64,000 bases of DNA from Candidatus Marinacidobacterium sp. (lineage in GTDB: Bacteria > Acidobacteriota > Vicinamibacteria > Marinacidobacterales > Marinacidobacteraceae): assembly GCA_965220965.1 (NCBI GenBank), contig OZ244852.1, positions 2,528,001-2,592,000 on the forward strand, given 5' to 3'. Shown piece after piece: positions 468 through 55,405 of this stretch. The stretch's first letter is position 1; each line of letters starts with the position of its first letter. Under the pieces are notes generated by a model. That model worked only from the letters and a program-made list of their open reading frames with translations, was not told the DNA's origin and searched no databases. A program made the translations under genes and the position numbers.

Positions 468-610
468 TTGGATGTCTGGGTGGCAGCGCGACCCCAGCAA
501 GCCCACGGTGATTCTCTGCGGTCTTCCCGCTCCCCGTCGCGATTCCACTTCTCCCCGCGTCTGCGGCTTTCAGTTCAGCGGGGTCAAGTGCAGTTCCCAG
601 TTTTGAGACT

Positions 611-3265
611 ATGTCCGCGCCTTTGAAATTCCTACCACTGGCTCGCATGTCGGAGCGAGTGAATCGCGACCGTCACGATTCCGACGTTGCGCTCTTCTTC
701 TCCCTCCTCCTTTACGGTGAGTGTCTTCTGAAGCTCGTAGTGGCAGGTATGGTGGCCATGATTCAGAACGATACGGATCTCACGCGCTACTCCTCTCTCT
801 ATCGTCTGGTCCGAGCTGATGGCCTCGGAGAGTGGATCGAAGAGCTCGCACATGCCCTAGTTGGCCCTCCTGCTCAGGTGCTCCATCCAGCCGCTCGCGA
901 CGCACAGAGGCAGCTGACACAGAAAGCTGCGGATGGATGGCGGCGAGAGGTCTATGACGGACTCTGTGAATGCATGTCAGCGCACAGCATCTCTGCCAGA
1001 GGCGTGTCTAGGCCATCTGCTCTGGATTGCCTCCGCCTTCTCCCGGAGATAAGGAACAAGACCCGCGGCCACGGCGCTTCGCGGTCGTCGCAGTGCGCGG
1101 ACGCGGCTCAGCCTCTCGAACGCTCTCTGACGCGTCTAGCGGAGGAGCTTGTGCTCTTTCGGATGACGTGGGTCTTTCTCCACCGGAATCTTTCTGGCAA
1201 GTACCGGGTCACGCCGCTGGCGGGTGCTCAGGATGTCGTGCAGCCTCTAGCCAGGGATCCGAATGCTGGAGATCACCGGAATGGTGTCTACCTCGCCCCC
1301 GGCGATCTGCGGAGTCTCAGGCGTGTTGAATTGGTCGAGTCCGACGCGGATGCTACGGACTTCTGGATCGCGAATGGCCAATTCGTGAACAACGAGTACG
1401 AGCTTCTGTCATATGTAACGAACGACAAGAAACGGCACTCAGCGACAGCCTACAGCACGCGACCAGCCGAGCTCGCGACAAGTCAGACACAAGGCTTCCC
1501 GGAGTTAGATGCGATTTCGGGGTGCTTTACCAACTTGCCTCAACCTCCAGCAGAGTATGTCGACCGTCACGACCTCCAAGCCACGCTGCGTGACATGCTC
1601 CGCATGGAGCGACACGAAGTCGTGACTCTCAAGGGGTCTGGCGGAGTCGGCAAGACAACGCTCGCTCTGCGTGTCCTGCACGCTCTGGTCCGTGAAGACG
1701 ATTGCCGATTTACTACGGTCTTGTGGTTTAGCGCACGCGATGTTGACCTGTTGCCATCCGGCCCGCGACCTGTCCGACCGGAAGTGGTCACGCTTGACGA
1801 CGTGTCCTCTCGGTACGCGTCTCTCGTGGGCCCACCACGTGAGGACTCGCGCAGGGCGGGAGAGACGAGACGACAACGAGCACAAAGGGCCCGCGATGCG
1901 TTGCAGGCCGGTCTAGCGCAGGGAGAAATCGGGCCCACCCTCTTTGTCTTCGACAATTTCGAGACAGTGGACACACCTGCTGAATTCTATCAGTGGCTCG
2001 ACCGGCACATTAGGTCGCCGAACAAGGTTCTGATAACTACACGAATCAGGGACTTCAAGGGAGATTACCCTGTTCATGTTGGCGGACTGCACGATTCTGA
2101 GGCAATCGAACTTGTAGATACGGTTGCCAAGTCTCTGAGAATCACTCACCTCATCGGCCCTAGCTATCGTAGCGAGCTCTTGAAGGCATCGTACGCACAC
2201 CCGTATGTCATCAAGATTCTCTTGGGCGAGGTCCAAGCGGCACAAAGGGCAGTGAAGCCAAGGAGGATAATCGCTAGTCAGGATGAAGTACTGACGGCAC
2301 TGTTCGAGCGCACGTACAACAAACTGTCGCCAGCGGCGCGAAAGGTGTTCCTTACCCTCGCTAACTGGCGATCGGCCGTTCCTGAACTTGCGCTAGAGGC
2401 TGTGCTCTTGAGGTCCGCCAAAGAAGGCTTTGACGTCGAGGACGCTCTGGAGGAACTGTATCGGTACTCGCTGGCCGAGGCTGAGGCGTCGACATCAGAC
2501 GATCAGGGTTTTGTCGTAATGCCGCTCGCGGCAGCTGAGTTTGGCCGCAGGAAGCTCCGCGTGAGCCCTCTCAAGTCGGCGGTTGAAGTGGACACAGAGT
2601 GGTTGCGACTCTTCGGTCCGACGCAGCGAGAAGATGTTCGTCACGGCGTGACTCGAAGTCTGCGGAGATTGATGAAGCATATTGCTGAGGAGGTGTCAGT
2701 CGGTCGACGCAGCGTGGAGGAATATGTGCCGACACTGGAGTTCATGGCGCGACGAGTGCCAGACCTGTGGCTTGACATGGAACGCATGTACTCGGAACTA
2801 GAGCCCGGCGCGATTTCCAAGAGGCGGAGATGTCTGCGCCAATACTTGGAGGTTGCATATGAGAAGAAGCAAGCTCTCTTGGTATGGCAACGGTTGAGGA
2901 AGCTCTGTGCGGAGGATAGTGACCAGAAAGGTGAGGTGCACGCGCTGGTGGAGATTTGCGAGGCTCCGGGAGTGGCGGCGCATGAGATTAGTGCAGCCGC
3001 AAACCGATTGAACTCAATACTCAAAAGGCGGCAGGGCGTGGTTCCAGATCTCGACAGTGAAGAGAGGAATGGCATGCTTCGACGCGTGGCCAAGAGGATG
3101 GAGAGGGTTGCGGCAAGTCTCGATGCCGATGATTTCTCAAGATTGGGATGGCTGTACGTCCAGCTCGACATGAAGCAGGAGGCGGTCGATAGCGCCCGGA
3201 GGGGGCTTGAACGAGATGCCGACAATGTGCATTGCGTGGGGTTGCTCGAGAAATTCTCACCCTGA
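611..3265 (+). CDS. NB-ARC/STAND NTPase (NLR-like) with N-terminal putative HEPN domain and C-terminal helical/TPR repeats
   Basis: Walker A GSGGVGKT, Walker B LFVFDNFE, sensor KVLITTR, wHTH-like 'YNKLSPAARKVF', TPR-like C-terminus; N-terminal RNKTRGH; visibly lower GC than host genes. Confidence 0.85.
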   Translation: MSAPLKFLPLARMSERVNRDRHDSDVALFFSLLLYGECLLKLVVAGMVAMIQNDTDLTRYSSLYRLVRADGLGEWIEELAHALVGPPAQVLHPAARDAQRQLTQKAADGWRREVYDGLCECMSAHSISARGVSRPSALDCLRLLPEIRNKTRGHGASRSSQCADAAQPLERSLTRLAEELVLFRMTWVFLHRNLSGKYRVTPLAGAQDVVQPLARDPNAGDHRNGVYLAPGDLRSLRRVELVESDADATDFWIANGQFVNNEYELLSYVTNDKKRHSATAYSTRPAELATSQTQGFPELDAISGCFTNLPQPPAEYVDRHDLQATLRDMLRMERHEVVTLKGSGGVGKTTLALRVLHALVREDDCRFTTVLWFSARDVDLLPSGPRPVRPEVVTLDDVSSRYASLVGPPREDSRRAGETRRQRAQRARDALQAGLAQGEIGPTLFVFDNFETVDTPAEFYQWLDRHIRSPNKVLITTRIRDFKGDYPVHVGGLHDSEAIELVDTVAKSLRITHLIGPSYRSELLKASYAHPYVIKILLGEVQAAQRAVKPRRIIASQDEVLTALFERTYNKLSPAARKVFLTLANWRSAVPELALEAVLLRSAKEGFDVEDALEELYRYSLAEAEASTSDDQGFVVMPLAAAEFGRRKLRVSPLKSAVEVDTEWLRLFGPTQREDVRHGVTRSLRRLMKHIAEEVSVGRRSVEEYVPTLEFMARRVPDLWLDMERMYSELEPGAISKRRRCLRQYLEVAYEKKQALLVWQRLRKLCAEDSDQKGEVHALVEICEAPGVAAHEISAAANRLNSILKRRQGVVPDLDSEERNGMLRRVAKRMERVAASLDADDFSRLGWLYVQLDMKQEAVDSARRGLERDADNVHCVGLLEKFSP

Positions 3266-3646
3266 TGGCCGTTGCCGAGACAATTGTCTTCTTTCCGTGA
3301 ACCCAACTTGGGTCGGTCCCGCGCGACGGGCGGGATCTGGCAACTGCCGGAGGGCCGATCTGTCCCGGGATCCTTGCTGAGCCACTCATCCCAGAGTCGA
3401 CGGCCACTTACTTCGGAGTGGCTCCTCGCCTGCGGAGGTGCCGGTGGTGCTTCCCCAATGGGTTCCGAGCCGGCCGATACAATCCGGTCATCGGATGGAC
3501 AGGATCGCCGATGCCAGCCTTCTGGCTCGCTTCGAGTCAGCTTGGCTACGGCTTCGGTGAGCCTGTGACACGCCGTGGCACACCTTGACGATGGAATTCA
3601 GGTCAGGACCGGCTCCGAAGCTTCGGGGAGCCGGGGGAGGGATCCC

Positions 3647-4792
3647 GTGCCGCGCCGCTCGCTTTTTCAGTCCACCCCGGAAGTGCTCCGGACGGATGTT
3701 CCGGCTGCCGCCGTGAGGCCGTTCGGGCTCCCGGCCCCGACCGCCTTCCGCTTCATCGACCTGTTCGCCGGGATCGGTGGGATGCGCCTCGGGTTCGAGA
3801 GCATCGGAGGCCGCTGCGTCTTCACCAGCGAGTGGAACCGGTTCTCGCAGGAGACCTACCGGGCGAATCACGGTTCCGATCACCCGGTCGTCGGCGACAT
3901 CCGGGGCGTCCCGGTTGGGGAGATCCCGGAGCACGACGTCCTTCTCGCGGGCTTCCCCTGCCAGCCGTTCTCCATCGCCGGGGTGTCGAAGAAGAACGCC
4001 CTGAAGCACCCTCACGGCTTCCGCTGCGAGTCCCAGGGCACGCTGTTCTTCGACATCGCCAGGATCATCGATCACCACCGCCCGCAGGCCTTCCTGCTGG
4101 AGAACGTGCGGAACCTTCTGAGCCACGACCGGGGCCGGACCTTCGGGATCATCCGCGCGACCCTCGAGGAGGATCTCGGCTACCAGATCTCCTGCCGGGT
4201 GATCGACGCCCGCTCCTTCGTTCCGCAGCACCGGGAGCGCATCTTCATCGCCGGCTTCCGCGAGGAGAACCCGTTCTCGCTGGAGGACCTCCACATCCCG
4301 CCCGGATCCGACGGTCCGCGGCTGCGGACCATCCTTCACCCCGAGGACGGGTCCGAGGTCGCCGAGCCCCCCTACACCGTGGAGCCGCAGGCGAAGGTCT
4401 CGCCGCGCTACACGCTGACCGAACACCTCTGGGGCTACCTTCAGGCCTACGCCGAGAAGCACCGGAGCCGCGGGAACGGCTTCGGCTTCGGGCTGGTCGG
4501 GCGCGGCGATGTCAGCCGGACCCTGTCCGCCCGCTACTACAAGGACGGGTCGGAGGTCCTGATCCGTCGCGCTGGCGGAGGGCGGCCGCGTCGCCTGACC
4601 CCCCGTGAGTGCGCCCGGCTCATGGGGTTCGACCGGCCCGGTCACCCGCCGTTCGAGATTCCGGTCTCGGACACCCAGGCGTACCGCCAGTTCGGCAACG
4701 CCGTCGTGGTTCCGGTCGTGGAAGCGGTCGCCGCGCACATGAAGCCCTGGTTACGGGCGGAGGAGAAGACAGCCAGACAGAGTGCCGCCTGA
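3647..4792 (+). CDS. dcm: DNA (cytosine-5)-methyltransferase, Dcm/M.EcoRII-like
   Basis: Motifs [45 protein letters not shown]; GTG 3647 after GGAGG chosen over 3575. Confidence 0.93.
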
Positions 4793-5240
4793 CATCGTTT
4801 CGCCTGCGACGAGGAGCCGCATGATGGCCGGGATCCGGGGCAGAAACACGAAGGTCGAGGTGCGCCTCCGGAAGGCGCTGTTTGCACGCGGGCTCCGCTA
4901 CCGCATCCACGTGCGGGATCTGCCCGGGCGGCCGGATGTCGTGCTTCCCCGCTACCGCGCCGTGGTCATGATCCACGGCTGCTTCTGGCACGGCCACGAC
5001 TGCGAGCTCTTCCGTCTTCCGGGGACGCGCACCGCCTGGTGGAAGAGCAAGATCGACCGGAACCGCGAGCGTGACCGCGAGGTCGAGCGGGCGCTGCGGG
5101 AGACGGGCTGGCGGATCGCGCACGTGTTCGAGTGCGCCATCCGGGGCAAGGTGCGGCGTCCCGTCGAGATCGTGGCTGCGGAAGTGGCCCGCTGGATCCG
5201 AAGGGAGTCCCCGGCACAGGAGATCCTGGTGCTGCCATGA
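4782..5240 (+). CDS. vsr: very short patch repair endonuclease
   Basis: '[23 protein letters not shown]', 'LPGRPD', 'HGCFWHGH'; overlaps dcm stop. Confidence 0.95.
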
Positions 5241-6475
5241 GCATGTCGATCGCGGTCATGGACCGCTGGCTGGCGCGGCTCACCGAGCGCGATGTCGTCG
5301 TCTACGTCAAGCGGCTCTCCGCCAACGACACGAGCAGAACCGGAGGCCACCAGGCGGGCACGTATCTGCCGAAGGCCTTGACCTTCCGCGTGGTTCCGGG
5401 CCTGGACCGCCGGGCCGAGCTCAATCCGCGCGAGCCGGTCGCCGTTCGCGTGGTCGCTCCCGGCAATGGCCGGACCGATGGCAACCTCATCTACTACAAC
5501 AACAAACGACGCACACCCGAGGGCACCAGGGACGAGACCCGCATCACGGGCTTCGGCGGCGAGGGCTCCCCGCTGCTGGATCCCGAGAACACCGGAGCGC
5601 TCGTCATCTTCGCGTTCGTCCGAGGGTCGGACGGTCTCACCTGCGAAATCTGGGTGTGCCGCAACTCGACCGAGGAGGACCGGCTCGAGTGCTACATCGG
5701 TGAGGTGGAGCCCGGGGCGGCCGCGATCTGGGAGCCCCGCGCCAACGTGCTCGAGGTCCTGCGGAAGTCGGCTGGAACTTCCTGCGTTCTCAGTCCCGAC
5801 CAGATCCCGGAAACATGGATGACCGAGTTTCCGACGGGCGCCGAGATCATCGCCAAGACGCTGGAACTGCTTCCGGGGAAGGGGCTGGGGCCGGATGACC
5901 GCCTCGTCCGGCGGCGCGCCTGCGAATACGAGGTCTTCCGCAGTCTGGAGCAGGTCCGCGAGATGCCGGCGATCCGGGAGGGCTTCCGGACGCTCGACGC
6001 GTTCGTCGATCTGGCCCAGACCGTCCTGCAGCGAAGGAAGGCGCGTTCAGGACGCTCCTTCGAGCTCCACGTGAAGGCCGTTCTGGAGGAGGAAGGCTTC
6101 GTCGAGGGTCGCGACTTCGGCTACAACATCGAGTCCGAACCGCGTCGCCGTCCGGACTTCCTCTTCCCCTCGACCGAGGCCTACCGGGACCCCTCGTTCC
6201 CCGCTGATGGGCTCGCGATGCTCGGAGTGAAGACGACCTGCAAGGACCGCTGGCGGCAGATCCTCAACGAGGCGAAGTCGGACCGCATCCCTACGAAGCA
6301 CCTGATCACCCTACAGGAGGGGGTCACGGAGAAGCAGCACGAGGAGATGGCGCGCTCCGGCGTCCGGCTCGTCGTGCCGAGCTCGCTCCATCACGCCTAT
6401 CCGGAGGTCGTCCGGCCTCGTCTGATGACACTGCGGGATTTGCTCAGCCATCTTCGCACCGTTCGTTGCCGCTGA
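5237..6475 (+). CDS. type IIE restriction endonuclease, EcoRII-like (N-terminal B3-like effector domain + catalytic domain)
   Basis: 'KRLSANDTSRTGGHQAG', 'RRKARSGRSFELH', 'PDFLFP', 'KTTCKDRWRQILNE'; ATGA overlap with vsr stop. Confidence 0.9.
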   Translation: MSMSIAVMDRWLARLTERDVVVYVKRLSANDTSRTGGHQAGTYLPKALTFRVVPGLDRRAELNPREPVAVRVVAPGNGRTDGNLIYYNNKRRTPEGTRDETRITGFGGEGSPLLDPENTGALVIFAFVRGSDGLTCEIWVCRNSTEEDRLECYIGEVEPGAAAIWEPRANVLEVLRKSAGTSCVLSPDQIPETWMTEFPTGAEIIAKTLELLPGKGLGPDDRLVRRRACEYEVFRSLEQVREMPAIREGFRTLDAFVDLAQTVLQRRKARSGRSFELHVKAVLEEEGFVEGRDFGYNIESEPRRRPDFLFPSTEAYRDPSFPADGLAMLGVKTTCKDRWRQILNEAKSDRIPTKHLITLQEGVTEKQHEEMARSGVRLVVPSSLHHAYPEVVRPRLMTLRDLLSHLRTVRCR

Positions 6476-6509: not shown

Positions 6510-7487
6510 TTGGACATGCAGCTACCTGCTCACCCCTTTACCAAGGAGGTTATCGATACTCGGTACTCTGAAATCTCCGAATACATGGACGCCCTCGGCT
6601 ACACAGGACCCGTACACTCACGGCGAGCCCTCCTGTTTGCCGTGTCTCAATCGGAAGAGATATGTGAACCCATCGGCGCCTCGCTCTCCAGAAACCTGCC
6701 GATGACGGAGTGTTTCAACGATCTGAGTGATTCCTGTGAAGTAATGCAGTGTGGCTTCCATAAGCTGTCCGTCGCAGCACTGCGGCTTGGTCTTGAGGAT
6801 GGTCTCATGGCGGCGTATTGGCGCTCCCTCGGTCACAACCACCCCGACTTCACGCGCTGGTTGCACTCAAGGGCGAGGACACCCCAGCACAATCAGCGTC
6901 TCTGGCAACACCTCCTCAGTCACGAAGGTGTTCGTCAAGTCGAGCAGGCCGTCGGCTTAAGGGAAGAGGCAGAGCAGGTCTGGGACACTCTCAACGCGTA
7001 TGTGCATACCCGCGGATGGAAACATTCAACGATGTCCGACGGACGGAGGGCTTGGGCCGCGCAGAACACGAATGCCAACGTTGAGGAATGGTATGGCCTG
7101 TTCGATCGTGTTACGAGGCTCGTTGTCCTGCTTCAGTTGCTGGTGCGACCCGCTCTCTGTCTCCAACCCATATATTCGACTCTGGTTCGAAAATTCGGCG
7201 CGTCGGATCACTTTCCTTTCTGCGGCGTCCTGTTTTCTGATTGTGCGGACAGCATCATCGAGTGTGTTGGCGCTTCCGAATACGAGTTGGCGAGCGATAT
7301 CGCGAAGCGAAGCCCTGAGTACAAGCGAGTGCGCGAATCCATTACACAGATGCCGGACTTGACGTGGGAGATCGTTGAGCAGCGACAGCGCAATATGTGG
7401 CGGTCAATGGATCTCGACGACACACGCATTCGGGCTTACATTGACGAAGCGAAGAAGATCTTGCAGAGTGCGCATCGTGAGAGTTGA
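6510..7487 (+). CDS. hypothetical protein, HEPN-like helical fold suspected
   Basis: 325-aa lower-GC ORF; 'ALRLGLE..AAYW' and 'WDTLNAYVH' resemble the R..LE / Y..LS..VH pattern of divergent HEPN families. Confidence 0.6.
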   Translation: MDMQLPAHPFTKEVIDTRYSEISEYMDALGYTGPVHSRRALLFAVSQSEEICEPIGASLSRNLPMTECFNDLSDSCEVMQCGFHKLSVAALRLGLEDGLMAAYWRSLGHNHPDFTRWLHSRARTPQHNQRLWQHLLSHEGVRQVEQAVGLREEAEQVWDTLNAYVHTRGWKHSTMSDGRRAWAAQNTNANVEEWYGLFDRVTRLVVLLQLLVRPALCLQPIYSTLVRKFGASDHFPFCGVLFSDCADSIIECVGASEYELASDIAKRSPEYKRVRESITQMPDLTWEIVEQRQRNMWRSMDLDDTRIRAYIDEAKKILQSAHRES

Positions 7488-7636: not shown

Positions 7637-8887
7637 TCATTGGTTCGTCCTGTAGAGCGCTGAGGCGATGTGCTCAACGTCTTTTCGAGCAACTCCGGCG
7701 ACGCGCATCGTTTCCGTCCAGGACGACTCTACCCGGGCGAACACGCGGTCCAGGATGGTCTCGGCGTCAGGGCGGGAGAGCTGGAACCTCCCGGCGCCGC
7801 TCAGCAGGTTCTCCCGGGTCGCCGCTCTTCCTCGCAGACCGCACTCCATGGCGAGGAACGGCGGCTCCCGCGAGATGGACGGTGTCGGCGTCAGGTCGTA
7901 GACCGGGCTGAGCCGCCATCCGGCGCCGTCGCCGAGGAGCGCGTGGTTCCTCGGGTGGTCGTCGGTGTTGCTCACCGCGGCGTTGAAGCACATCCGGGCG
8001 AAGAGTTCGCGCAGATCGTCTCCCGGCGTGCGGCTCGCCCGCCGGACTTCGTCCGCCAGCAGCAGGTAGGACCACCGGGCGCGCGCCGTGGCGCTCTCCT
8101 CGGCACGCAGGAGCGTCAGGCCGCTGACGAAGCGCGAACGGAGGAAGCCGCCGTCGGTCCCGGATCGGTCGAAGCGGCGGACGAGAAGCACCGAGCGCCC
8201 GCCGGCCGTCTCGAGCCGGCTCTCCGGGGCCTGCAGCCCGCACTGCGCTGCGAGCCGCAGGAGGGCGTACTCGACCCGGGGCTCGTCCCAGCGGTCCTCC
8301 GGGCGTCCGAACTTGGCGAGCCAGAGTTCCCCCTGGTCCTGCACCGTGATCTTGGGCCGGGCGCCACCGAGCGAGCTCCCGGGGAGAAGCACGTCGCGCA
8401 GCGGGTCCTCCCGGGCGTGGCGCTCGTCCCGGGCGACCCGTTCCACGGCGTGAACCAGCTCTTCCAGCGCCGGGATATCCGGAAACTCCGGCGCTGTGGA
8501 CGAGAGCGACGCGCCCGGTCCGAACCCGAGCGCTCCCACCCGGTCCGCGTCCCCCCGCTGCAGGTAGTCGAACTCCTCCAGCGGTGACCGGCCGAGCCTC
8601 CGTTCGATCAGCCTTCGGCCCCACGCGTCGGGCATCGCATCGCGGATCGCCCCGAAGAACCCCTCGAGACGCACCGTCTCACGCATCCGGGGTTCGAGGA
8701 TGATCTCCACCGGGTCGAGCTCCACCGCGTCCGGGCGGTCGAGATACGAGCGTCCGTAGACGAACTCCCCGCGCCAGATCCCATCAGGCGTCCGAGCCAC
8801 CCGGAACCTTCCGGCGACCGTGAACTCCGTCTCGCCGGGCAGGACGATGTGGACGAACGCCTCGCGCCGCTTGCGCTCAGAAGTCAT
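7637..8887 (-). CDS. hipA: HipA-family Ser/Thr kinase toxin
   Basis: 'PDAWGR', 'SLGGARPK', 'WLAKF', 'RRFDR', 'NTDDHPRNH', 'LSPVYD'. Confidence 0.92.
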   Translation of the reverse strand: MTSERKRREAFVHIVLPGETEFTVAGRFRVARTPDGIWRGEFVYGRSYLDRPDAVELDPVEIILEPRMRETVRLEGFFGAIRDAMPDAWGRRLIERRLGRSPLEEFDYLQRGDADRVGALGFGPGASLSSTAPEFPDIPALEELVHAVERVARDERHAREDPLRDVLLPGSSLGGARPKITVQDQGELWLAKFGRPEDRWDEPRVEYALLRLAAQCGLQAPESRLETAGGRSVLLVRRFDRSGTDGGFLRSRFVSGLTLLRAEESATARARWSYLLLADEVRRASRTPGDDLRELFARMCFNAAVSNTDDHPRNHALLGDGAGWRLSPVYDLTPTPSISREPPFLAMECGLRGRAATRENLLSGAGRFQLSRPDAETILDRVFARVESSWTETMRVAGVARKDVEHIASALYRTNQ

Positions 8888-9218
8888 TGTCGAGCTCAGT
8901 GCGTCGCCGGGCGCGGCGCGGCGCGCGGGCCCGCTCCAGCGCCTTGCCCTCTTCGTCCCGGTCGGGGTCGGCCAGCGTCCGCGCGTCCTCCAGAAGGCCG
9001 AGCGCCCACAGGGCCCCGAGGACGGCGGCAGTCGAGACGCCAGGCCGGCCCCGCTCGATAGCCGCGACCGTGAATCGGGACACCCCGATCCGCTCGGCCA
9101 GATCGGCCATGCGCAGGTTGCGGCGCAGGCGCGCTATCCGGATGTTGCGGCCGAGGCGGAGGAGGGCCGCCTCGACTGCGGCGGGGGGCGCCTCCACGAT
9201 GGCGGATCGGTTCGGCAT
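8877..9218 (-). CDS. XRE/HTH antitoxin (HipB-like)
   Basis: 'RIARLRRNLRMADLAERIGVSRFTVAAIERG' HTH; overlaps hipA start. Confidence 0.88.
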   Translation of the reverse strand: MPNRSAIVEAPPAAVEAALLRLGRNIRIARLRRNLRMADLAERIGVSRFTVAAIERGRPGVSTAAVLGALWALGLLEDARTLADPDRDEEGKALERARAPRRARRRTELDNDF

Positions 9219-17137: not shown

Positions 17138-17230
17138 GGAGAGGTACCGAAGTGGCCGTAACGGGGGCGCCTCGAAAGCGCTTTGTCCGGTGAAGAGCCG
17201 GGCACGTGGGTTCGAATCCCACCCTCTCCG
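17138..17230 (+). tRNA. tRNA-Ser(CGA), CCA not encoded
   Basis: GGAGAGG/CCTCTCC acceptor stem, CTCGAAA anticodon loop, long variable arm, GGTTCGAATCC T-arm. Confidence 0.95.
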
Positions 17231-52775: not shown

Positions 52776-53195
52776 ATGCCCTCCCGGCACGATGACTGGT
52801 TTCGGCAGGCGGCGGCCGATCTGCGCCATGCCCGCAGCGCTCGCGCGGAGGCCGCGCACGACTGGGCCTGTTTTGCAGCCCATCAGGCGGCGGCGAAGGC
52901 GCTGAAGGCCGCCCTGATGCGTTGCGGCGCCGACGCCTGGGGACACACCGTGACCGGGTTGCTCGGGGCTGTGTCCGGCGACGAGGAGCCTCCCGCTGAT
53001 CTCGTCGACTGCGCCAAGGCGCTCGACAAGCATGCGATTCCCGCCCGTTATCCCAGCGCCTTCCCGGAGGGCGCCCCCATCGACTTCTACACGGGCCGGG
53101 ACTCCGACGAGGCCATCACGTTTGCTGAACGGCTCATGGCCGTTACTCGCGGTGTGGACATGCTCTCCCGCGAAGCTGAACCGGCGGATCGCTGA
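52776..53195 (+). CDS. HEPN domain protein (orphan)
   Basis: 'DWFRQA..DL', 'WACFAAHQAA.KALKA', 'GH', 'LDKH.IP.RYP'. Confidence 0.85.
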   Translation: MPSRHDDWFRQAAADLRHARSARAEAAHDWACFAAHQAAAKALKAALMRCGADAWGHTVTGLLGAVSGDEEPPADLVDCAKALDKHAIPARYPSAFPEGAPIDFYTGRDSDEAITFAERLMAVTRGVDMLSREAEPADR

Positions 53196-54259: not shown

Positions 54260-55405
54260 TCACGGCCAGAGCCGGTCCGTCTCGAGGGCCTCGAGGAAGC
54301 GCCGGAGCGGCCAGACCTCGATCCCGCCTTCGGTCACGAACCGCTGGTCTCCCAGGTACACCAGGATGCGCCTCGCCAGGCCAGGCAGTTCCTCGACCGC
54401 CTGGAGCCCGCGAAGCTGCGCCGAGTGGAACCGCTTCGACGCCTTGATCTCGATGGCCAGCCGTTCGTCGCCCCGGACGAGGAGCGCGTCCACCTCGGTT
54501 GCGGCCTCCGCCGGGGACCAGAAGCAAAGCTCTTCGTAGAGCGGCCCTGGTTCGCGGTAGGCGCGCAGCAGGCCCAGGACCCAGCCCTCGAACATCGCGC
54601 CGCGCTCCTCGGCGCCGACCGGGCCGAGATGGCGCTTCATGGCGCGCGCCAGGCCCGGGTCCGCCCAGTAGAGCTTGGGTCGCTTCCGCTCCCGCACTCG
54701 CAGCTTCGCCTCGAAGGCTGGCAGTCGCCACGCCAGCAGCGTGTCTTCGAGGACCTCCAGATAGCCCGCGACCGTGGTGCGCGCGACCCCGGCGTCGCGC
54801 GCGATCCCGGCGACATTGAGTTGCTGCCCGTGGAGTAGGGCCGCCACCCGGAGGAACCGCACGAAGCCCGGCAGGTTGCGGAGGCTGGCTTCGGCGCGGA
54901 TCTCCTCCCGCAGGTAGAGCTGCGCGTAGCTTTCGAGAGCCAGCCGGCGATCCTCCGAGGCCCGGACCAGCGGCATGGCGCCATGTCGCAACACTTCGTC
55001 CAGATCGAAATCCGCGCCCATCTCCTCCGGCAGGAGCGGGAACATCTCCATACGCAGCGCGCGGCCGGCGAGCAGGTTGACGCCGCCGGCGCGGAGCTTC
55101 CGGGCGCTCGACCCGACGAGAGCGACCCGGCGACCCTCCTCGATCAGGCGGTGGACCTCGTTCAGCAGCTCCGGCATGCGCTGGACCTGGTTCACCACGA
55201 TCCAGGCGTCCCCGGGCGCCGCTTCGGTCAGCGCCCGGAATCGCCCCGGTTCGCCCTGAAGATCGAAGAGCAGCGCCTCGTCCAGCAGGTCCAGATGGAG
55301 CGCCCCCGGGAGGGCGTTCCGGACCCAGGTGCTCTTGCCAACGCCGCGAAGCCCGAGGAGAAAGAAGCTCCGCTCGGGGAGTGTCAGCCGTCTTCTGTAG
55401 AGCAC
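54260..55405 (-). CDS. AAA+ ATPase with DUF4143 and C-terminal PD-(D/E)xK-like domain
   Basis: Walker A 'GLRGVGKS', 'GSSARKL', 'LAGRA', 'PKLYWADPG', 'EVD..LAIEIK'. Confidence 0.88.
   Translation of the reverse strand: MLYRRRLTLPERSFFLLGLRGVGKSTWVRNALPGALHLDLLDEALLFDLQGEPGRFRALTEAAPGDAWIVVNQVQRMPELLNEVHRLIEEGRRVALVGSSARKLRAGGVNLLAGRALRMEMFPLLPEEMGADFDLDEVLRHGAMPLVRASEDRRLALESYAQLYLREEIRAEASLRNLPGFVRFLRVAALLHGQQLNVAGIARDAGVARTTVAGYLEVLEDTLLAWRLPAFEAKLRVRERKRPKLYWADPGLARAMKRHLGPVGAEERGAMFEGWVLGLLRAYREPGPLYEELCFWSPAEAATEVDALLVRGDERLAIEIKASKRFHSAQLRGLQAVEELPGLARRILVYLGDQRFVTEGGIEVWPLRRFLEALETDRLWP

Follow-up and report, generated by a model that had tools for sequence, protein, structure and literature searches.

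Avs1–5 are bacterial antiphage receptors described in earlier work, and AVAST models are included in PADLOC. Avs7–24, as presented in the available text of Lee et al. (Nature, 2026; PMC13581612 / bioRxiv 10.64898/2026.01.04.697583), combine in one polypeptide an effector at the N-terminus, a STAND NTPase and, at the C-terminus, a sensor that is mostly helical, and they occur in defence islands with a patchy, horizontal spread; the same text speaks of 589 STAND clades and of at least 90 defence-associated STAND families, and sensors were clustered there only if they had at least 400 residues. A related kind of protein was catalogued computationally by Anantharaman et al. (2013; PMC3710099), whose available text lists HEPN-STAND fusions with TPR, S1 or cold-shock domains (Npun_F6454, MED222_16016, and Desac_1927 under “Other fusions” in Table 1) and cites Bacillus cereus gi 229028907 as a protein with an N-terminal HEPN domain and a STAND module. 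HEPN ribonucleases (RNases) are also among the enzymatic effectors listed for bNACHT proteins, which are NLR-related, in the available text of Kibby et al. (bioRxiv 10.1101/2022.07.19.500537). Here we describe a gene at positions 611..3265 (forward strand) of a 64,000-nucleotide stretch from Candidatus Marinacidobacterium sp. (assembly GCA_965220965.1, contig OZ244852.1, positions 2,528,001 to 2,592,000; hereafter the window), whose 884-residue product consists of a domain of presumed HEPN fold (residues 1–186) followed by a beta domain (187–300), an NB-ARC STAND module (about 319–650), and a partly TPR-like C-terminal region (about 651–884). We regard it as probably, with considerable room for doubt, a one-protein NLR-like (Avs-like) conflict receptor and a predicted abortive-infection RNase.

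As in the Avs proteins, an effector, a STAND NTPase and a presumed C-terminal sensor are found here in one protein, within defence islands, and ligand-driven oligomerization is proposed here as well. The differences are an NTPase of the NB-ARC type, a HEPN-like effector with its beta domain, and a C-terminal part of only about 230 residues, and given the limit of 400 residues in the sensor clustering of Lee et al. (2026), this HEPN-STAND family may lie outside that sensor analysis. Furthermore, the word “HEPN” is absent from seven supplementary files of that paper, the large supplementary tables not being among them. A search of PADLOC-DB 2.0.0 returned only matches of P-loop length (E about 0.009) to PDC-S59, PDC-S73, and GajB, in agreement with the original prediction, made from the sequence alone, in which the protein was not recognized as having one of the characterized Avs1–4 architectures. 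With the fusions of 2013, as far as their available description goes, it shares an N-terminal HEPN domain bearing Rx4-6H and followed by STAND, sometimes with TPRs, and a predicted role as a defence or suicide RNase (Anantharaman et al., 2013). Those fusions, however, appear to be placed within the DUF4145-like part of the table or immediately below it, whereas no Pfam DUF4145 match (hhalign probability 0.1) was obtained here, and the beta domain is not a recognized S1 or cold-shock domain; the named proteins were compared by description only. The bNACHT proteins belong to another STAND clade; in the protein studied here NACHT stays below and NB-ARC rises above its cut-off.

The best structural neighbours of residues 1–186 are HEPN proteins associated with HepT/MNT (5yep_B, 7ae2, 8xdj), Pfam HEPN proteins (1wwp, 2hsb), RnlA/LsoA, and Csm6. 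These small toxins and effectors carry R-[ND]-x(3-4)-H at what the model places as the same position of the fold, but significant sequence or profile similarity to them is absent, and the domain is about 50–70 residues larger here, with additional helices between the E-x3-K helix and the helix of the motif. These toxins and effectors are controlled by an antitoxin, AMPylation or cyclic oligoadenylate, whereas control here would presumably be exerted through the fused STAND switch. The original prediction had proposed the gene as a candidate for a new system. The family lies outside PADLOC 2.0.0, and its effector lies outside Pfam. The claim of novelty has to be tempered, because HEPN-STAND fusions as a kind were already listed in 2013 and HEPN also figures among bNACHT effectors.

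The reading frame itself (884 residues and a stop codon, a single-gene unit in the open reading frame list) is present as claimed and of lower guanine plus cytosine (GC) content, 0.55–0.61 over positions 501–3500; the left flank has 0.70, and elsewhere in the genome ten further stretches of 20 kb have 0.70–0.73. A homologue search retrieved 2032 proteins at E ≤ 1e-3 among 8000 candidates scored. Among the matches listed, with the window's own gene call excluded, lengths range from 708 to 962 residues, with 116 of 119 falling between 840 and 930, and most rows cover 95–100% of the query at 41–56% identity. Given these full-length homologues of about 870 residues, the frame is a genuine gene and not a chance frame. 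The source gene call (P0002) has 704 residues and matches 80% of the query, so that about 180 residues are omitted, which we take to be N-terminal (window positions 611–1150), that is, most of the HEPN-like domain. Sequence conservation among the homologues begins at about residue 5, and they show that the longer frame is the conserved one. Since the effector is invisible to Pfam and PADLOC and the gene call is about 180 residues short, automatic annotation misses the key feature of this protein.

The HEPN-like helical domain (611..1168, residues 1–186) contains the putative catalytic R-x5-H loop, R148-N-K-T-R-G-H154-G-A156 (1052..1078), and the second HEPN motif, E-x3-[KR], as E37-x3-K41 (719..733). 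A script found the motifs named in the original prediction at their claimed places (RNKTRGH at 148–154, GSGGVGKT at 342, LFVFDNFE at 444, and KVLITTR at 472). Alignment A1 consists of 48 homologues that were selected by their rank in similarity and not by the motif; in it, E37, K41, R148, N149, H154, and A156 are invariant, while conservation reaches at least 90% at T151, R152, and G153. A second alignment (A2) was built from loci picked by the genome scan and a script through the R-x5-H motif; because its loci were chosen by that motif, the invariance seen there is circular, and it was excluded as evidence of conservation. When two homologue searches were pooled, the arginine and the histidine were retained in 257 of 267 homologues, in accordance with the expected conservation of the two residues, and every listed variant that keeps both starts with RN; E-x3-[KR] was found in 245 of the 249 homologues in which it could be tested. 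Among the ten exceptions are clear fragments, two proteins that have N-S instead of R-N (P0198, 854 residues; P0260, 674 residues), one in which the histidine is replaced by arginine (P0239, 873 residues), and one with the one-residue shorter RNRVAH, an Rx4H motif (P0253, a 1139-residue form about 270 residues above the usual length). These four variants, which are rare among full-length relatives, may represent inactive or divergent sub-branches.

An AlphaFold2 model of residues 1–310, built from 69 homologous N-termini, is very confident (predicted local distance difference test 94.4, predicted template modelling score 0.91) and is all-helical up to residue 184–186 and then beta-rich to about residue 290, in keeping with the claimed N-terminal module of about 300 residues. 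In this model R148 closes helix 137–152, and H154 lies in the loop 153–158 ahead of the long helix 159–179, hence R-N-x4-H straddles the junction between a helix and the loop that follows it, which is the positional hallmark of HEPN domains (PMC3710099). The residue directly after the arginine, mostly N, D or H in HEPN proteins according to the available text of the same paper, is asparagine here in 48 of 48 homologues (N149), and E37 and K41 are located in an N-terminal helix (25–49). Helices 58–124 intervene between this helix and that of R148; the available text of Anantharaman et al. (2013) reports insertions between helices 2 and 3 of HEPN domains, a second acidic residue within E-x3-[KR] in many HEPN families, and a very high divergence of HEPN families from each other. 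Residues 26–50 form a hydrophobic stretch that might be read as a membrane helix; this reading was set aside because the confident model buries the stretch as a helix of the bundle carrying the invariant E37 and K41.

An exhaustive structure search with VIA-align against 48,161 representative chains placed HEPN proteins in ten of the 12 best rows. Roquin (4txa and 4qik) and SO_3166 (5yep_B) are counted among these as proteins that we take to be HEPN. The others of the ten, 1wwp, 8xdj, 1jog, LsoA (5hy3), 2hsb, 7ae2, and Csm6 (6tug), are HEPN by their entry titles or by the table in PMC3710099. Foldseek gave no match for the 1–310 model at E ≤ 0.001 in the PDB or among the viral proteins of BFVD, so the structural check proposed with the original prediction yielded a confident helical model and, from Foldseek, no significant match. 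Residues 1–310 match nothing in Pfam, NCBIfam or PADLOC. A protein atlas, in which no structure for this protein is present, led only to unnamed clusters, apart from a faint lead to RnlA-toxin_DBD (score 0.77, seen in 11% of members). With HepT-like proteins, the top local match of hhalign aligned LRNKTRGH with G-RN-L-VH, a non-significant match (E 0.22) over 14 columns. On the ranking of folds and the three positional motifs in the predicted model, we regard the N-terminal domain as HEPN-like and as lying outside the described sequence families, and it is likely a true, catalytic HEPN domain. The predicted HEPN assignment was thus strengthened by a conserved, well-placed motif and by a structure ranking led by HEPN proteins, while a profile match to a named HEPN family was not obtained.

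The claim of a STAND NTPase was borne out. The nucleotide-binding domain (1565..2140, residues 319–510) is of the NB-ARC type in Pfam: NB-ARC scores 26.5 bits over residues 327–508 of the window's protein, above its curated cut-off of 23.5, and AAA_16 covers residues 319–455; NACHT reaches 24.5 against a cut-off of 26.7 bits, and several nSTAND models likewise stay below their cut-offs. NB-ARC was matched in 47 of the 48 aligned homologues (best E 6.4e-12), and by sequence the NTPase therefore belongs to the NB-ARC/AP-ATPase type of STAND. Conservation in alignment A1 follows the expected motifs, positioned by script. In the Walker A motif GSGGVGKT (1634..1657, residues 342–349), G342, G344, G345, G347, K348, and T349 are invariant, and GxGGxGK[TS] is found in all 206 homologues of at least 800 residues. 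In the Walker B region LFVFDNFE (1940..1963, residues 444–451), D448, N449, F450, and E451 are invariant, and the Walker B pattern is found in 183 of the 206 long homologues. KVLITTR (2024..2044, residues 472–478) is a sensor-1-like “TTR” motif, presumably the RNBS-B motif of NB-ARC, in which T476 is invariant and T477 and R478 are conserved in at least 90%, with the TTR pattern in 187 of the 206. Searched against PDB sequences, a profile of the whole family gave only matches at the level of the P-loop, to ArsA (4e-5), AfsR (0.023), a ZAR1-like protein (0.15), and Apaf-1 (0.37), and by sequence no close relative with a solved structure was found there.

Between the HEPN-like domain and the NTPase lies a beta-rich domain of about 115 residues (1169..1510, residues 187–300) without a recognized fold. 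Other HEPN-STAND proteins carry S1 or cold-shock domains (PMC3710099, available text), and such an identity was looked for in residues 187–300 and was not demonstrated. Downstream of the NTPase, residues 511–650 (2141..2560) are presumed to be the helical and winged-helix part of the STAND module, and with a mean pairwise identity of 0.58 they are the most conserved of the five regions compared. The C-terminal region (2561..3262, residues 651–884, 234 residues) is presumed to be a helical-repeat sensor. The TPR-like repeats that had been claimed for it were seen only in relatives, since TPR_14 was found in 16 and TPR_2 in 13 of the 48 aligned homologues (Pfam, E ≤ 0.01), about a third of them, and the window's own protein had no TPR match in Pfam at E ≤ 0.1. 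Mean pairwise identity is 0.43 in the C-terminal region, 0.46 in the HEPN-like domain, and 0.54–0.58 in the NTPase parts, so by this comparison the C-terminal region does not appear hypervariable in the present sample. Greater lengths, 1266 and 1139 residues, occur in two relatives that share the N-terminal module, and each of these has one Pfam TPR match past NB-ARC. In a metagenomic relative of 652 residues (P0147), the N-terminal module and the beginning of NB-ARC are joined to a response-regulator receiver domain at the C-terminus, which may be a real swap of the sensor or an assembly chimera.

A search with the N-terminal 300 residues against 1.84 billion representatives retrieved 561 proteins at E ≤ 1e-3; in the best 150 of the 561, 89 have 820–940 residues, 59 are shorter, and two are longer. 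A scan of the genomes of 185,579 species, one genome per species, led to 287 confirmed loci, of which the 80 kept are distributed, according to the titles of their records, over Acidobacteriota, Myxococcota, Actinomycetota, Chloroflexota, Bacteroidota, Pseudomonadota, Planctomycetota, Verrucomicrobiota, and others. The N-terminal domain was found in none of 40 relatives, of which two share the genus, 22 the family, and 16 the order. Given the low GC, the single copy in its own genome, the lack of a match in these 40 relatives, and its occurrence in many phyla, the gene is accessory, patchy and horizontally spread. In four related loci (L020, L049, L050, and L058) the gene is split over two frames, which may reflect a frameshift, a stop or a sequencing error, and some copies may be decaying. 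No conserved partner gene was found, as no neighbour family is common to more than five of 73 loci; the gene accordingly works alone or with unlinked partners, and the single-gene character proposed for it was upheld.

For such a protein we infer RNase activity, oligomerization, the nature of the cue and phage protection. At rest, the NTPase would keep the protein as an inactive monomer, and binding of an infection cue by the C-terminal domain would lead to nucleotide-dependent oligomerization, which would bring the HEPN-like domains together. The R148/N149/H154 loop, aided by E37/K41, could then cleave RNA independently of metal, translation would halt, and the infected cell would arrest or die ahead of phage release. 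STAND receptors of this layout oligomerize upon binding phage proteins according to the available text of Lee et al. (2026; PMC13581612), and HEPN RNases usually act as dimers (PMC13092281, available text). A complex prediction for two copies of residues 1–310 scored 0.09 against a mark of 0.42, a result that counts neither way on dimerization.

The genomic surroundings of the relatives are consistent with a receptor of this kind, as is the position of the gene in the window, beside Dcm-Vsr-EcoRII and close to HipA-HTH. When up to two open reading frames (ORFs) on each side of the relatives' gene were scanned against PADLOC at E ≤ 1e-10, 37 of 256 near neighbours matched, in 29 of 70 loci, and the matches include type I, II, and IV restriction, Dsr2, Old/Gabija-like, AbiEi, HEC-05, and DpdJ/BrxH-like families. 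For the baseline, ORFs were called in the same way in ten stretches of 20 kb distributed evenly over the window's genome, and three of 124 matched; this own-genome baseline was adopted because distal ORFs in the loci are nearly as defence-rich as the near ones. Near neighbours and baseline differ at Fisher p = 1.3e-4, a value that overstates independence because the baseline is a single genome and three Micromonospora loci have the same neighbour. These neighbourhoods are enriched in defence genes, and the direction of the enrichment is clear.

Several observations weigh against this reading. In the neighbourhood test, some of the near matches are to generic helicase, methylase or P-loop models, 11 of 102 ORFs of the same loci at a distance of 6.5 kb or more also match PADLOC (p = 0.40 against the near ones), and the defence baseline comes from one genome only. 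As regards the effector, the N-termini of the 69 members matched no HEPN family in Pfam even at E ≤ 10, searches of PDB sequences with the single protein and with profiles gave no match for the N-terminal domain, and hhalign of alignment A2 gave probabilities of 0.1 with 16 DUF4145 proteins, 0.3 with 25 HepT-like proteins, and 0.2 with 24 Pfam-HEPN proteins. The placement of the motifs, moreover, refers to the order of helices along the modelled chain and not to a superposition on HEPN catalytic residues or to nearness to E37. A C-terminal region as short as about 230 residues and as conserved as the rest of the protein fits less well with a fast-evolving sensor of phage proteins, and no experiment on a protein of this HEPN-STAND family was found in the portion of the literature available.

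The conservation of the C-terminal domain over many phyla also suggests that it may sense a conserved small infection cue. In this version of events, which we hold to be unlikely, the N-terminal module would represent a HEPN clade not described before, in which a rigid catalytic RN[KR]TRGHGA loop is firmly joined to a beta domain of new fold, and the short C-terminal domain would sense a conserved small cue, host-derived or of the RNA/nucleotide type, and not a variable structural protein of the phage. The protein would then be an NLR-like “guard” RNase, not a pattern-recognition receptor of the Avs type. Quite unlikely, in our estimation, is a HEPN-STAND switch for suicide or dormancy that does not respond to phages, its cue being plasmids, other mobile elements, stress or a kin-conflict signal, or its task the keeping of its own island. 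A C-terminal identity of 0.43 over the phyla, similar to that of the effector, would suit a conserved or host-derived cue for such a switch, many carriers are Actinomycetota, Myxococcota, and Chloroflexota, and broader conflict roles have been proposed for the STAND systems of multicellular bacteria (PMC7159879 and PMC8195603, available texts). The neighbours, however, are mainly restriction-modification genes and named anti-phage families (Dsr2, Old/Gabija-like, AbiEi, type IV restriction), and tests on STAND proteins with this domain arrangement have shown a response to phage proteins, as stated in the available text of PMC13581612 / bioRxiv 10.64898/2026.01.04.697583.

The effector may, alternatively, not be an RNase at all. 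We consider it decidedly unlikely that the protein is a STAND conflict receptor whose helical domain lacks RNase activity, in which the conserved RN[KR]TRGHGA loop would serve to bind a ligand, a nucleotide or a partner, much like the non-catalytic HEPN-type domains beside nucleotidyltransferases, and the output would be of a different kind, for instance an activity residing in the beta domain or the recruitment of a further protein. Against this stand the retention of R, N, and H in 257 of 267 homologues together with E-x3-K, and the lack of a conserved partner gene able to act as a separate effector. Least of all do we expect an ordinary signal-transduction STAND protein, a regulator of transcription or of a pathway like MalT or AfsR without any role in conflict, which we judge very improbable; many bacterial STAND-TPR proteins are indeed regulators (PMC7159879, available text) and AfsR is among the weak PDB sequence matches (E 0.023, P-loop region only), but Pfam found no DNA-binding domain in the window's protein or in the 48 homologues, the gene is accessory and of foreign GC, and its surroundings are rich in defence genes and hold no conserved neighbours to regulate. 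The reading we prefer therefore continues to be that of an Avs-like conflict receptor with an RNase effector.

If phage protection is true, a large and phylogenetically broad family would join the bacterial NLR-like receptors. RNA cleavage as the output, if true, would also be of interest, as the Avs proteins of the cited papers are, in the text available, represented by DNA-cleavage assays or bear SIR2 or protease domains, and an RNase output was not found there. A small conserved sensor and a compact effector would make the protein a convenient model for how STAND oligomerization switches on a HEPN site.

In the window, a complete EcoRII-type restriction-modification set (3575–6475), with GC near that of the genome, lies directly downstream of the gene. 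By Pfam and PADLOC it consists of a Dcm C-5 cytosine methylase (3575–4792), a Vsr mismatch endonuclease (4782–5240), and an EcoRII endonuclease with its N and C domains (5132–6475), all on the forward strand. Between the restriction enzyme and a HipA gene is a 325-residue ORF on the forward strand (6510–7487, GC 0.55–0.57), which has no match in Pfam, PADLOC or NCBIfam and is probably a second imported gene of the same island. On the reverse strand, positions 7637–9218 encode a HipA-like kinase (HipA_C, Couple_hipA in Pfam) and then an HTH_31/HTH_3 protein, which resembles a toxin-antitoxin pair of the HipBA type, located where the island ends on the right. Beyond the island lie ordinary genes and a complete ribosomal RNA operon (16S, two tRNAs, 23S, and 5S; 36252–41687, forward strand), and another tRNA gene is located at 17138–17230. 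Further along, a small canonical HEPN protein (Pfam PF05168, E 4e-26; an open frame of 150 residues) is encoded at about 52794–53147 on the forward strand (genome positions 2580794–2581147), near a DUF4143/AAA_14 ATPase gene on the reverse strand (54260–55402).

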